The position numbers were made by a program, and so were the translations under genes. This document shows positions 39,128 through 49,664 of a stretch of 64,000 bases of DNA, piece by piece. The notes under the pieces are model-generated. The model was not told where the DNA came from. It worked only from the letters and a program-made list of their open reading frames with translations, and searched no databases. Each line of letters starts with the position of its first letter. Positions within the stretch are counted from its first letter, which is position 1. The stretch is from the NCBI RefSeq assembly GCF_002854065.1, contig NZ_CP024147.1. One strand, written 5' to 3'. Source of the DNA: Escherichia coli. GTDB lineage: Bacteria; Pseudomonadota; Gammaproteobacteria; Enterobacterales; Enterobacteriaceae.

Positions 39128-40048
39128 TTACTCGCCCTTTTTCGCCGCCTGAATATACAGCATTTCCAGCGCCAGCGTTGCCGCTGCCAGAGCGGTGATT
39201 TCCGACTGATCGTATGCCGGAGCCACTTCCACTACGTCCATCCCAACGATGTTGAGATCTTTCAGGCCGCGTACCAGTTTAATAGCGCGATCGGAGGTCA
39301 GACCGCCAATTACCGGCGTACCGGTTCCCGGCGCAAATGCAGGATCCAGGCAGTCGATATCAAAGGTCAGGTAAACCGGCATATCACCCACAATTTGTTT
39401 CACCTGGGCGATAACGTCATCCACGCTGCGATCGTTCACCTGGCAGGCGTCCAGCACGGTAAAGCCGTTGTCTTTATCAAATTCGGTACGAATACCAATC
39501 TGCACGGAATGATTCGGATCGATCAGACCTTCTTTCGGCGCGGTATAGAACATGGTGCCGTGGTCAAATTCACAACCGTTCGCGTAGGTATCGGTGTGGG
39601 CGTCAAAGTGTACCAGCGCCATTTTGCCGAAATGCTTCGCATGAGCACGCAGCAGCGGCAGCGTAACAAAGTGGTCACCACCGAAGGAGAGCATACGCTT
39701 ACCGGCAGCCAGCAGCTTCTCGGCGTGTGCCTGCAGTTTTTCGCTCATCTCACGGGCATCGCCGAAGGCATATACCAGATCGCCGCAGTCCACCACGTTC
39801 AGACGCTCGCGCATGTCGAAATTCCACGGGAAGCGGTTGTGTTCCCAGGCCAGGTTAGTCGAAACCTGGCGAATCGCCGCCGGGCCATGACGACCACCGG
39901 CACGGCCAGAGGTGGCCATGTCGAACGGCACGCCGGTGATCACCCAGTCGGCATCGCTGTCATACGGCTGGAAGTTCATCGGCAGGCGTAAAAAACCAAA
40001 GGCGTTGGAAACCAGTGAGTTATCGTATTGATGACCTAAGGTGCTCAT
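39128..40048 (-). CDS. speB: agmatinase (agmatine ureohydrolase)
   Basis: 306-aa [63 protein letters not shown]...; arginase fold. Confidence 0.95.
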
Positions 40049-40071
40049 GGATGGACTCCTATTACAAAGTC

Positions 40072-40118
40072 GATATAAAAAAACCCTTCCGCGTCGTTAG
40101 GCCCGACGAGGAAGGGTT
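40072..40118 (-). terminator. rho-independent terminator 25 nt upstream of speB start
   Basis: Minus strand aacccttcctcgtcgggcctaacgacgcggaagggtt followed by T7. Confidence 0.6.
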
Positions 40119-40183
40119 GGATTTGCGAAACACAAGTTTGTGCTAATTATCGCCTTAAATGGGCGAGGCATCAAGCGAGGTTG

Positions 40184-40650
40184 CTATTTCCGACACGGTG
40201 GCGGCGCATAGCCATTGTTATCTGCCGGAAAGGCTTGTCCAGAGCACGGCGGCAGCGCGTTTTGCGCCTGGCCTTGTAATTCAAAGGCGGCAAAGCCGAT
40301 TACACCGGTATTACGCACATCGCCTTGCGCCGAATTGGCTGCGTAGGAATCAGCAACGTTGGCGAACTGAAAAGCCGCTTCGGTATGTTTATCTTTGCGG
40401 AATCCTTTAATCGCTAACGAATCTCCGGCATTCACAATATAGCCGTTGTTATTCAGCGAACCTTGCTTGCCGTTCAGCACATCCAGGCCATCAACCGTAG
40501 CAACGATCTCGTAGTTGGTGTTACGACTGTAATTACGAACATATAATTGATAATTCATTCCGACTCTGGCGTGGACAATATAGCGTGGTTCATTATTGGA
40601 TGAATCATAAACACGCGTAATAGGTAGAGAATTAAAATTACCATCGCGAA
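40184..40650 (-). pseudogene. 3' fragment of unknown gene, 5'-truncated by IS1 copy 2 (Asn/Tyr/Gly-rich, two C-terminal Cys)
   Basis: Minus-strand frame is open from IS1 boundary (40650) to stop at 40184, about 155 codons ending ...NALPPCSGQAFPADNNGYAPPPCRK; track shows only the part from the first Met (40184..40558); not recognisable as speA. Confidence 0.45.
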
Positions 40651-40665
40651 GGTAATGACTCCAAC

Positions 40666-41169
40666 TTATTGATAGTGTTTTATGTTCAGATAATGCCCGA
40701 TGACTTTGTCATGCAGCTCCACCGATTTTGAGAACGACAGCGACTTCCGTCCCAGCCGTGCCAGGTGCTGCCTCAGATTCAGGTTATGCCGCTCAATTCG
40801 CTGCGTATATCGCTTGCTGATTACGTGCAGCTTTCCCTTCAGGCGGGATTCATACAGCGGCCAGCCATCCGTCATCCATATCACCACGTCAAAGGGTGAC
40901 AGCAGGCTCATAAGACGCCCCAGCGTCGCCATAGTGCGTTCACCGAATACGTGCGCAACAACCGTCTTCCGGAGCCTGTCATACGCGTAAAACAGCCAGC
41001 GCTGGCGCGATTTAGCCCCGACGTATCCCCACTGTTCGTCCATTTCCGCGCAGACGATGACGTCACTGCCCGGCTGTATGCGCGAGGTTACCGACTGCGG
41101 CCTGAGTTTTTTAAATGGCGGAAAATCGTGTTGAGGCCAACGCCCATAATGCGGGCGGTTGCCCGGCAT
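40666..41169 (-). CDS. insB: IS1 InsB' frame
   Basis: 167-aa ORF; differs from copy 1 at several residues ([22 protein letters not shown]...). Confidence 0.9.
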
Positions 41170-48149: not shown

Positions 48150-49123
48150 ATAAACCCGAACTCAGCCAGATAGAACGTATCTTCTACCCAGGCTGGCTGA
48201 TGGCCAGCCAGTTGCGGAGCGGCCAGGAAGTTCGCGACGGGGAAGGGCTTTACCGCCGGGCTTGCCGTTTGGTGAAAGAGGCAAAAGCTGCGCTCATGGA
48301 GGCAGGCTACAGCGACATCAGCCGCGACCATATGGTGTATGCCTTGTGTGCGCTGCTTGATGAGAGCGTGATGAACAGGGGCACCACCGATGATGGCTAC
48401 CTGACCTGGCACCGAGACCCGCTACCCGGGAGGTCTGACATGGTGGATAAAACGCAGCATTACCGTAATCACTGGGCACAGTGGACGGTTGCCGAAATTA
48501 CGTTTGTGGAACAACACTATGGTCAGTTGGACGTGCGATTTTCAGGAGAAGCCAGCGAGCAGGGATTAACAACTTTTCTTGATGCTTTTGATGAGTCCAG
48601 TCACTGGGTTTTAGTTGTACCATTATCACCCGGCTTGCTTCCTTTTAAAAAATGCCGGGTAACAACGGCGGAACTGGCGGAAACAACATTACCCGCGTCG
48701 CAAGTGCTGGTGGTTGAAAATGAGCAGTGTTTGCATCATCTTCCAGCATTATCTGACACTATCGCGATTTTAGGCTGTGGCCTGGACGTGCAATGGCTAT
48801 CCAGTTCTGTTCTGGATGAAAAACGCGTTGCCTATTGGGGGGACATGGATAGCTGGGGACTACTGATGCTGGCGAGAGCCAGGCGTTGTCGTCCGACGCT
48901 TGATGCCCTGCATATGAACCGTGAGTTGTTTGAGCAGTATGTCAGTCATAGCGCCGTTCCAGAACCGGTCATAGCGAAGGAAGCTGTACCTGATGGCTTG
49001 CTTAACGAGGAGGCCGATTTTTATCGCTACTTAACCCGTTTACCGCGTGGTCGTCTGGAGCAGGAGTTTTTGCCTGTGGGGATTGCGGAAGAGGTGCTTC
49101 TCAGGTGGGGAAAAGAGAGTTAA
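48146..49123 (+). pseudogene. tssL: chimeric ORF: N-terminal ~95 aa of TssL (DotU domain) fused in frame to unrelated sequence with Toprim-like motifs; no transmembrane anchor
   Basis: Start overlaps tssK stop (ATGA); N-terminus IFYPGWLMASQLRSGQ...YALCALLDESVMNRG is DotU-like; remainder lacks the TssL TM helix and contains VLVVENEQ and YWGDMDSWG. Confidence 0.55.
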
Positions 49124-49441
49124 AAAAGTCATGCTTGTTCTGGAAGGTTATTTACGCGGTATTTTGGTAGTGGTTGTTGCGAAAAGTCTGCGTTGATGGT
49201 CCTGATACCTTACCGGGTAGAGGGACTTTGCATCAGTCAGTTTAGATACTGTGGCAACTGTCGCCTTTAGATGGACAAACGCATAAATTATTAACCTATT
49301 GAATTTCTTGTTTTCAGGCAGCAGAGAGAAGGTATATCAGAGGGTACTGAGGTGTATAAACGTCACGAACATCCGTGAAAAGGCGAAAAAAACCAGCCAA
49401 TAGATAATGCTTTGCAATGGCCAGAAATCTACCGTAGCCAG

Positions 49442-49476
49442 AAAGTGAAAAAGCCCCGCTTTGCAGCGAGGCCTTA
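49442..49476 (-). terminator. probable rho-independent terminator of pheV
   Basis: Minus strand gcctcgctgcaaagcggggc followed by T5, immediately 3' of the tRNA. Confidence 0.5.
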
Positions 49477-49483
49477 TGAATAG

Positions 49484-49559
49484 TGGTGCCCGGACTCGGA
49501 ATCGAACCAAGGACACGGGGATTTTCAATCCCCTGCTCTACCGACTGAGCTATCCGGGC
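49484..49559 (-). tRNA. pheV: tRNA-Phe (GAA anticodon)
   Basis: Reverse complement is GCCCGGATAGCTCAGTCGGTAGAGCAGGGGATTGAAAATCCCCGTGTCCTTGGTTCGATTCCGAGTCCGGGCACCA (76 nt). Confidence 0.97.
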
Positions 49560-49664
49560 AACGGGGCGCATTAAACCTGAATCGCCTCGTCTCGTCAATC
49601 AAATTTCTTCAATTTACTGCAGACTGCACAATCTATCATCACTTTGCCGCTATTGCACGCATTG

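Follow-up and report, generated by a model that had tools for sequence, protein, structure and literature searches.

The 64,000-nucleotide stretch of Escherichia coli DNA analysed here (the window) carries one junction of what is, at a probability of about 85% on genome comparison, a recent, strain-specific, IS1-mediated inversion of ~35.1 kb, with breakpoints in a lipoprotein gene upstream of speB and in a TcfC-like gene of a decayed pheV island. Of the two junctions, one falls within the window; a second IS1 copy, and target duplications split between the two copies, are predicted.

Gene order around speB and its closest unrearranged relative

The original prediction stated that in K-12 speB is followed by speA, with pheV about 27 kb further on in the same orientation, and proposed that the pheV to yggT block is reversed here. 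The stated layout agrees with MG1655, in which a gap of 137 bp separates speB from speA and pheV follows on the plus strand at a further 26.6 kb. Megablast alignment of the window with MG1655 3072000-3121000 bore out the inversion: window 35778-40125 corresponds to tktA-loiP-speB in the same orientation, with homology stopping 77 bp upstream of the speB ATG, and window 49473-64000 corresponds to pheV back to yggT in the opposite orientation at 97.5-98.3% identity. Chance is of no concern, because the matches are kilobase alignments at 96-100% identity. Between the two MG1655 blocks lie a 526-bp non-K-12 stretch (40126-40650), a complete IS1 of 768 bp (40651-41418) and 8 kb of pheV-island DNA (41419-49472). 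The order in the window is tkt-loiP-speB, a gene remnant, one IS1, the decayed pheV island, and pheV-yqgA-speC...yggT reversed relative to K-12 (Table 1). Upstream of speB we found the lipoprotein-gene remnant, IS1 and island DNA in place of the K-12-type adjacency of speA on the same strand, and speA is absent within the 64-kb window.

Table 1. Features of the window, with positions counted from its first nucleotide
Feature	Position	Strand	Description and basis
IS1a, second IS1, simple insertion	33556..34323	-	9-bp duplication AAATACTCG on both sides; direct orientation to IS1b
speB (agmatinase)	39128..40048	-	intact ORF, 306 codons
Intrinsic-terminator-like hairpin and U-run in speB leader	40077..40118	-	9+5 bp stem, then U5 (RNA fold)
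Sigma-70-like motif TTGATG-17-GATAAT, candidate proximal promoter of speB	40146..40174	-	consensus scan
Lipoprotein-gene 3' remnant	40184..40650	-	154 codons and stop of a 243-codon gene
IS1b, junction element	40651..41418	-	768 bp; insA/insB read towards speB; no target-site duplication
Inverted segment, part within the window	41419..64000		pheV island, pheV, yqgA, speC, nupG ... yggT; colinear with CUWW06, opposite orientation to MG1655
TcfC-like fimbrial-usher-type gene, 3' remnant	41419..42058	+	first ~1.9 kb missing; 846 codons in CUWW06
Three pheV-island hypothetical genes	42045-42755, 42759-43649, 43663-44172	+	coordinates from CUWW06 annotation
tssB pseudogene	44717-45213	+	CUWW06 annotation
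tssC	45246-46793	+	CUWW06 annotation
tssK	46812-48149	+	CUWW06 annotation
TssL/DotU N-terminal fragment fused to JetD C-terminal fragment	48146-49123	+	NCBIfam TssL, residues 8-96 only; Pfam DotU and JetD_C
pheV tRNA-Phe(GAA)	49484-49559	-	ARAGORN; Rfam tRNA, 68.3 bits; inverted relative to K-12

The nearest complete genome, CUWW06, differs from the window by 13 substitutions over ~62.4 kb, and the only other differences are the two IS1 copies and the rearrangement. In CUWW06 the genes are ordered as in K-12, the lipoprotein gene is intact, the TcfC-like gene is unbroken at the breakpoint, and IS1 is absent from both breakpoints. The flanks of IS1b map to CUWW06 L005 14766 and L002 17656 (positions 3866766..3901847), 35.1 kb apart with strands reversed; as in an IS-bounded inversion, they are separate loci in opposite relative orientation in the unrearranged genome. 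The whole of window 41419..64000 is colinear with CUWW06 L002 17656-40237 at 99.978% identity. In three drafts of the same clone, the TcfC-like gene is uninterrupted on ~126-kb contigs, and the part fetched is colinear through pheV into speC. Nearly all of 5426 complete E. coli genomes match the two window halves on opposite strands relative to the window, and neither the IS1/TcfC junction nor the whole arrangement was found in any of them with 15-kb and 25-kb queries and 400-bp junction probes. The IS1/TcfC junction is present at 100% identity in short contigs from at least two sequencing runs (ERR15740533 and DRR831865), which cover this junction only and not the flank on the other side of IS1. 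By these comparisons, the inverted state is evidently derived, recent and strain-specific, and the close relative keeps the standard order.

The junction element, IS1b, is flanked by CATCGCGAA on one side and CTCATGGGG on the other, and its ends coincide exactly with the points at which the lipoprotein gene and the TcfC-like gene are cut off. Its sequence matches two IS1 copies beside the TcfC-like gene in CUWW06, which are annotated as IS1B, at 100% identity. Its minus-strand ORFs encode InsA (41088-41363, 91 aa) and InsB (40666-41169, 167 aa), copies identical to it carry the annotation 'IS1B family transposase, programmed frameshift', and the CUWW06 copies of IS1 match Pfam Zn_ribbon_InsA, HTH_Tnp_IS1 and DDE_Tnp_IS1. 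IS1a and IS1b are both exactly 768 bp long, with imperfect terminal inverted repeats of ~23 bp (GGTAATGAC... and ...GCATCACC); they differ at 8 positions, and IS1a is absent from CUWW06. Their size and ends, the insA/insB' frames and the 9-bp target duplication, the last seen at IS1a, place these elements in IS1. The lack of a target duplication at IS1b is to be expected of a rearrangement junction and does not speak against its membership. IS1a lies outside the inversion event and shows that IS1 is active in the strain.

The lipoprotein-gene remnant lacks the N-terminal 89 codons, including the signal peptide and lipobox, as judged from the translations. The DNA immediately upstream of speB had been described as a foreign gene fragment plus IS1 instead of speA. 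IS1 is there and speA is not, but the fragment belongs to a common E. coli gene: in 3556 of the 5426 complete genomes (66%), speB and speA have this 732-bp gene between them, which rules out the foreign reading; K-12 lacks the gene. The lipoprotein has no Pfam family and no meaningful NCBIfam match. As the gene is native to the lineage, speA and speB were ~1 kb apart already before the inversion; the uncoupling of the two thus holds as a physical separation with IS1 at the junction, but it did not begin from a K-12-like spacing.

The same 9-bp site in the lipoprotein gene holds IS1 in other lineages, in both orientations, and nearby sites hold IS1 in LY180 and GCA_900196715.1; judged from these insertions, the gene is a recurrent IS1 target, or hotspot. 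GCA_900196715.1 was considered as a possible instance of the same junction and rejected, its IS1 being a different insertion 47 bp away in the opposite orientation. Two candidate markers were also followed. The 124-aa ORF of the remnant proved non-specific, being called in frameshifted or otherwise disrupted copies of the gene as well. The fusion of the lipoprotein 5' end to IS1, a predicted product of 92 aa, occurs in many assemblies by exact-protein look-up. All of its contigs of at least 10 kb belong to other lineages, with two records of >1 Mb in normal order (one read, one listed as similar), and its short contigs end inside the inserted element, where the arrangement is unreadable. This product is identical for either IS1 orientation and therefore has no power to discriminate between arrangements.

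On the other side of IS1b, the assignment of the TcfC-like gene comes from an NCBIfam TcfC match on the full-length protein and Pfam TcfC/CooC_C matches on related products. The three hypothetical genes that follow gave no NCBIfam match. Judged by annotation and family matches, 44717..49123 is a decayed type VI secretion remnant.

Origin of the inversion and competing readings

Recombination between inverted IS copies inverts the DNA between them (Lee et al. 2016, PMC5009759), and in evolved E. coli most rearrangements, 19 inversions included, involved IS elements (2014, PMC4173774). The window resembles these cases in that the junction IS lacks a target duplication of its own, the genes between are reversed, and the size range and mechanism class are the same. 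It differs in being from a natural isolate, with breakpoints absent from the 5426 complete genomes and one junction observed.

A closer parallel is the complete genome of EC32 (NZ_CP085619.1), in which both ends are resolved. Its near end runs from speB through a lipoprotein-gene remnant of 210 bp, IS1 and a sat fragment to pheV-yqgA-speC, and its far end from a sat fragment through IS1 and the lipoprotein 5' end to speA. Identical IS1 copies stand at the two ends in inverted orientation, and each of the 9-bp duplications TGTTTATCT and GTCTTTTGT is split between these copies. As in the window, the breakpoints lie in the same lipoprotein gene and in the pheV island, and the order is speB-IS1-island-pheV-yqgA-speC. 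The segments are similar in size (32.6 kb in EC32, 35.1 kb in the window); IS1 bounds both ends in EC32, and one observed and one predicted end in the window strain. In contrast to the window, EC32 belongs to a different lineage (about 95-97% identity), keeps 210 bp rather than 467 bp of the lipoprotein gene, has sat rather than the TcfC-like gene as its island target, and carries an IS1 variant that is 97.1% identical. Since lineage, position in the lipoprotein gene, island target and IS1 variant all differ, the EC32 inversion is an independent event.

The inversion in the window would have arisen either by intramolecular replicative transposition of one IS1 or by homologous recombination between two inverted IS1 copies. 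One-step transposition and insertion followed by homologous recombination leave the same flanks and are therefore indistinguishable. Intramolecular transposition of IS1 reportedly yields adjacent deletions and inversions, and the window shows likenesses to this process: the CUWW06 IS1 directly adjoins the stretch that is missing in the window, the junction has no target duplication, and the inversion has IS1 at its observed end. Past the window end, ~12.5 kb more of inverted DNA (yggS ... metK ... speA, lipoprotein 5' end) would lead to the far junction, at which a second, inverted IS1 copy would close the segment beside the lipoprotein 5' end and speA. This junction should read speA, the lipoprotein 5' end finishing in ...GAATATGCTATTCGCGATGG, an IS1 inverted relative to 40651-41418 that starts with GGTGATGCTGCCAAC... 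and ends in ...GGAGTCATTACC, and then a partner flank. The inversion would have destroyed both the lipoprotein gene and the usher-like gene.

The partner flank depends on the route. The route that we prefer, at about even odds, starts from IS1-X, a CUWW06 IS1 1.9 kb from the breakpoint that shares the sequence (100% identity) and orientation of IS1b and has no duplication. IS1-X would have removed the adjoining 1.9 kb of the TcfC-like gene and then attacked the lipoprotein-gene hotspot, or recombined with a copy inserted there, and the partner flank would be CACGCAAAGCACTGTTTAGT, the outer flank of IS1-X in CUWW06. As IS1-X already lacks a target duplication in CUWW06, the pheV island has a history of IS1 rearrangement. 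On a possible but less probable route, IS1 would first have inserted into the lipoprotein gene and then reached the TcfC-like gene by inversion-type transposition; the partner flank would in that case be CCCCATGAG and then the reverse complement of the TcfC 5' 1.9 kb. The choice between the routes rests on one fragile negative: a look-up that requires an exact protein match gave no record of the predicted 643-aa product, in which the TcfC 5' fragment is fused to IS1. Records do exist for the full-length TcfC-like product, which has the same IS1-borne start codon.

An ordinary inversion by IS1, by either route, has to be weighed against an error of assembly or a mixed population. In that reading, which we regard as unlikely, inverted IS1 copies would sit in both genes in K-12 order, and either the wrong flanks were joined across the 768-bp repeat or isomers coexist. 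It draws on the facts that IS-bounded inversions are not detectable or resolvable with short reads (PMC5009759), that the genome is IS1-rich (at least 38-39 matching places in the relative CUWW06) and that the public short-read contigs support one IS1 flank and not the opposite one. However, the window is contiguous over 64 kb across two full IS1 copies, which short-read assemblies would normally not achieve, and EC32 offers a fully resolved inversion of this type. Moreover, an uninverted genome with both insertions would need the TcfC 5'-IS1 fusion product, which is not on record.

Very unlikely, in our estimate, is a larger or multi-step event, such as a translocation, nested inversions or loss of part of the speA-yqgF block, in place of a simple 35-kb inversion. 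The far end is outside the window, and the island already had an IS1 without target duplication in CUWW06. A different IS1 inversion (yggM/glpX) has also occurred in the same neighbourhood in strain 2017.18.02CC; we rejected this strain as a third case of the present inversion, as its speB-speA pair is intact. Against such complexity, colinearity with CUWW06 is perfect over the 22.6 kb from IS1b rightwards to the window end, a single inversion accounts for everything seen, and EC32 shows the simple reciprocal form. The chance that the window order is ancestral for the lineage and K-12 rearranged, an arrangement named in the original prediction as evidence against itself, is practically nil. 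The only point in its favour is that K-12 lacks the lipoprotein gene, unlike most E. coli. It is refuted by the K-12 order of CUWW06, at 13 mismatches in ~62 kb, and further opposed by the uninterrupted drafts of the same clone, the opposite strands of the two halves in almost all complete genomes, and the two genes cut exactly at the IS1 ends. The GC skew also changes sign at the junction (-0.037 to the left of 40650, +0.025 to +0.065 to the right).

The region upstream of speB

The SpeB translation is identical to those of MG1655 and CUWW06. The breakpoint lies 602 bp upstream of speB, and all 602 bp are identical to the uninverted CUWW06; conservation with K-12 covers the 77 bp before the ATG, Shine-Dalgarno sequence and hairpin included. 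A terminator ~25 nt before the speB start had been pointed out. The hairpin is present as an interrupted 14-bp stem that ends 28 nt before the ATG and has the features of an intrinsic (Rho-independent) terminator, but it is native and unchanged in K-12. A simple terminator scan missed it because the stem is interrupted. As the hairpin of MG1655 is the same base for base, we rejected the idea that the rearrangement created or brought in the terminator. The whole 151-nt speB leader folds at -46.8 kcal/mol (z = -4.2) and contains no known RNA element in Rfam; sub-threshold matches to the REP-like naRNA4 were seen downstream of speB.

Upstream of the hairpin, TTGATG-17-GATAAT aligns in register with TTGAAT-17-GATAAT of the K-12 speA-speB spacer, and speB is said to have its own promoter besides read-through from speA. 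It had been suggested that speB may lose the speA operon promoter. What speB could have lost is no more than read-through from speA and from the lipoprotein gene, and 602 bp of native upstream DNA with the promoter-like element are kept. As the coding sequence and the native upstream DNA are kept, speB expression is predicted to be largely retained. Compared with the 'speAB operon' of K-12, SpeB is identical, the 77-bp leader is conserved and the promoter-like element stands at the aligned position. In contrast to K-12, speA is no longer upstream, and before the inversion the two genes were already separated by the lipoprotein gene, as in two thirds of E. coli. Silencing or loss of speB would make speC necessary for putrescine, and cells would then be putrescine-limited when arginine represses ornithine synthesis.

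Recurrence and implications for E. coli gene order

The interval from the lipoprotein gene to the pheV island might be a recurrently invertible segment whose flip could be favoured by selection, since independent flips are seen in two unrelated lineages at least, the window strain and EC32; we consider this quite unlikely, the alternative being an inversion that arose neutrally as a side effect of IS1 activity. IS1 has a hotspot in the lipoprotein gene, and pheV islands are IS1-rich. If selection did act, one possible benefit would be to free speB from speA-coupled transcription. Another would be that the majority of the block genes become co-directional with replication, 20 of the 32 being head-on in the K-12 orientation, including metK, yqgF and pheV.

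The event is of an ordinary, known kind of IS1 rearrangement; its breakpoints themselves are what the complete genomes lack. It offers a clean, datable case, from a natural E. coli clone, of a gene order remodelled by IS1, with an unrearranged relative ~13 SNPs per 62 kb away. In the window, tkt-loiP-speB now lies between two IS1 copies in direct orientation, which makes it liable to deletion. With the lipoprotein gene present in two thirds of E. coli genomes, the speA-speB spacer of K-12 serves poorly as a reference, and because the gene is a repeated IS1 target and this type of inversion has arisen twice, synteny-based annotation of a 'speAB operon' fails in such strains.

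Gene order around speB and its junction IS1

Alignment of the window to MG1655 3072000-3121000 places its left part in K-12 order up to a point 77 bp before the speB ATG (at 40048), after which a non-K-12 stretch, a complete IS1 (IS1b) and island DNA precede pheV (Table). The rest of the window, starting at 49473, has pheV, yqgA, speC, nupG ... yggT in order and orientation opposite to K-12 at 97.5-98.3% identity, so the original prediction that this block is reversed is borne out. The K-12 order that it gave is also right: in MG1655, speB is followed after 137 bp by speA, with pheV a further 26.6 kb along. 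speB is indeed physically uncoupled from speA, with a lipoprotein-gene remnant, IS1 and the island now upstream. Two further blocks have no K-12 counterpart yet are present in CUWW06, namely a transporter module and a prohibitin/SPFH-family gene (Table).

Among 5426 complete E. coli genomes, the top match is the near-clonal CUWW06, with 13 substitutions over ~62.4 kb of all non-IS sequence. Its order is of the K-12 type (tkt, loiP, speB, a 732-bp lipoprotein gene, speA ... yggT ... speC, yqgA, pheV, then a T6SS remnant, a TcfC-like gene, IS1 and glcA), and it has no IS1 at either site matching IS1b. The left flank of IS1b ends at CUWW06 L005 14766, within the lipoprotein gene, and the right flank begins at L002 17656, within the TcfC-like gene; the two positions, on opposite strands, are separated by 35.1 kb. 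In three same-clone drafts the TcfC-like gene is uninterrupted on ~126-kb contigs, whose fetched part is colinear through pheV into speC. Neither the IS1/TcfC junction nor the whole arrangement occurs in any of the 5426 complete genomes. GC skew changes sign at the junction, from -0.037 on the left to +0.065 (island) and +0.025 (core genes) on the right, as expected of freshly inverted DNA. The window gene order is thus derived and very recent; it is not ancestral for the lineage, as CUWW06 keeps the K-12 order.

The second IS1 of the window, IS1a, carries a perfect 9-bp duplication, AAATACTCG, is missing from CUWW06 and is a plain new insertion. IS1b is flanked by CATCGCGAA and CTCATGGGG, with no target duplication, and two genes are cut off precisely at its ends, the lipoprotein gene and the TcfC-like gene; of the latter only the last ~640 bp are kept. 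These features indicate that IS1b is a rearrangement junction, and we conclude that the inversion is real and recent, was mediated by IS1 and belongs to a well-known kind. The near junction is the one within the window, and the far junction is expected ~12.5 kb past its end. Misassembly through IS1, or a culture containing both orders, is improbable, as the window is contiguous across two IS1 copies, which would point to long-read data.

Features of the window and of related loci
Feature	Sequence	Position	Orientation or size
pgk-epd ... cmtB, tktA, loiP, speB (MG1655 alignment)	window	up to 40125	K-12 orientation
PPC-domain protein and ECF-type transporter module, between epd and yggC	window	24934-28214	
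IS1a	window	33556-34323	
Prohibitin/SPFH-family gene, between cmtB and tkt	window	34324-35778	
IS1a-IS1b unit	window	33556-41418	7.9 kb
loiP-speB spacer	window	38818-39115	
speB leader	window	40049-40183	minus strand
speB leader	MG1655 L001	11799-11935	
Hairpin and U-run	window	40077-40118	
TTGATG-17-GATAAT	window	40174-40146	
Non-K-12 stretch (MG1655 alignment)	window	after 40125	526 bp
Lipoprotein remnant	window	40184-40650	last 154 codons
IS1b, complete	window	40651-41418	768 bp
TTG start of truncated TcfC-like ORF	window	41405	
Island DNA	window	between IS1b and 49473	8 kb
Frameshifted tssB	window	44717-45213	
TssL/DotU-JetD ORF	window	48146-49123	325 codons
pheV	window	49484-49559	minus strand
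Lipoprotein gene	CUWW06 L005	14300-15031	
IS1 pair	CUWW06 L002	13888-15768	
Inversion in 2017.18.02CC	L009, NZ_AP027844.1	880566-904848	

A repeated IS1 target and the route of inversion

The gene fragment upstream of speB had been called foreign, but it is part of a lipoprotein gene lying between speB and speA in 3556 of 5426 (66%) complete E. coli genomes, including EDL933 and EC958; K-12 is among the minority without it. The 243-residue product carries a signal peptide that includes a lipobox (LLAGC), and it matches no Pfam or NCBIfam family. IS1 lies within or beside this gene in 11 complete genomes. In LY180, a simple insertion (duplication TTCCAGTTC) sits ~10 bp from that of the window; CP055786.1 and several other assemblies from other lineages carry IS1 at the identical 9-bp site, some in one orientation and some in the other; and a draft that is 99.94% identical to the window shows another insertion at a distance of 47 bp. 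The 9-bp site, CATCGCGAA, has been struck at least three times, and the gene is a repeated IS1 target. In L014 and L015 (GCA_021702555.1, SRR17774255), it is broken at the same position by non-IS1 sequence (...CGCGATGG|TTGATGCGCCGCGCGATAAATGC).

The flanks in the window fit both two insertions followed by homologous recombination and one-step intramolecular replicative transposition; as both leave the same flanks, the window cannot separate them. At roughly even odds (about 50%), we favour an IS1-adjacent 1.9-kb deletion that would have been followed by inversion into the lipoprotein hotspot. This preference comes from IS1-X, the CUWW06 IS1 located 1.9 kb from the TcfC breakpoint, which is 100% identical to IS1b in the same orientation (IS1a differs at 8 positions) and already lacks a target duplication. 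It also comes from short-read contigs of other runs, in which the IS1/'TcfC junction matches the window at 100% identity, and from the missing reciprocal product: an exact-protein look-up gave no record of an IS1 fusion to the TcfC 5' fragment, although the start codon borne by IS1 is one that the gene caller uses, a full-length TcfC-like product being on record. A tentative alternative, perhaps one chance in three, has IS1 insert in the lipoprotein gene first and then enter TcfC by inversion-type transposition; the ranking is fragile, since it rests on the negative look-up of the reciprocal product. Upstream of the TcfC-like gene, CUWW06 carries two identical IS1 copies 345 bp apart, the outer with a 9-bp duplication (CTGAAGAGC) and the inner without; the TTG start of the TcfC-like ORF comes from an IS1 end, as does that of the truncated window ORF.

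An independent, fully resolved parallel is found in EC32 (NZ_CP085619.1), a urine isolate at about 95-97% identity. At its near end, speB is followed by 210 bp of the lipoprotein gene, IS1, a sat fragment, then integrase, pheV, yqgA and speC; at its far end, 32.6 kb off, are a sat fragment, IS1, the lipoprotein 5' end and speA. Its IS1 copies share one sequence in opposite orientations, and each is accompanied by one copy of both 9-bp duplications, TGTTTATCT from the lipoprotein site and GTCTTTTGT from the sat site, as an IS1-bounded inversion characteristically leaves them. Strain 2017.18.02CC has another, distinct IS1-associated inversion in this neighbourhood, which joins truncated yggM to truncated glpX, with glpX...speB-speA...yggM flipped.

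The speB leader after uncoupling from speA

SpeB has the same protein sequence as in K-12 and CUWW06, and the DNA matches CUWW06 exactly over the 602 bp upstream of speB. The terminator noted close before speB exists, ending 28 nt before the ATG, but is base-for-base the same in MG1655 and is native rather than carried in by the rearrangement. Upstream of it, TTGATG-17-GATAAT lines up without a shift with TTGAAT-17-GATAAT in the K-12 spacer. The leader, in which a promoter-like element, a strong intrinsic-terminator hairpin and a Shine-Dalgarno sequence come one after another, has a layout common to K-12 and lipoprotein-gene strains and matches no Rfam family. This layout resembles an attenuator. 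Agmatine induction of speB has been reported, and the attenuator-like leader could be tied to it. In the loiP-speB spacer, there is one ~113-bp REP-like repeat unit more than in K-12, and three matches to Rfam naRNA4 (RF02564) score 34-46 bits, below the gathering score of 59.5.

Szumanski & Boyle are said to have found in 1990 that two promoters, its own and that of speA, drive speB transcription. The 137-bp spacer makes speAB as an operon doubtful (PMC8674398). The original prediction was that speB may lose the speA operon promoter. The inversion takes away read-through from speA, and also from the lipoprotein gene, into speB, and IS1b now lies upstream with its insA-insB frames facing speB. 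However, the 602 bp of native upstream DNA are kept, and we predict that expression is largely retained. In EC32, where speB is uncoupled in the same way, about 345 bp is all that is left of the native DNA upstream, and this is tolerated. The concern over speB regulation is for the most part unfounded.

Consequences for the inverted block

The type VI secretion island carries a frameshifted tssB and one ORF in which the N-terminal ~90 residues of TssL/DotU run into a C-terminal fragment of JetD (Wadjet), a deletion scar in a decayed island. IS1a and IS1b are direct repeats with 8 mismatches that enclose a prohibitin-family gene, tkt, loiP, speB and the lipoprotein remnant, a unit resembling a composite transposon; recombination between them could delete it, with loss of tktA and speB.

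A segment between inverted IS copies inverts on recombination, invisibly to short reads (PMC5009759), and IS elements took part in the majority of 110 rearrangements, 19 of the 110 being inversions, in evolved E. coli (PMC4173774); the literature treats IS-mediated inversion as a standard outcome of IS activity. In K-12 orientation, the + strand of the speA-to-pheV block holds 20 of 32 genes (14.4 of 23.9 kb) and, judged by GC-skew sign, is head-on to replication; the inversion turns most block genes co-directional, including metK, yqgF and pheV.
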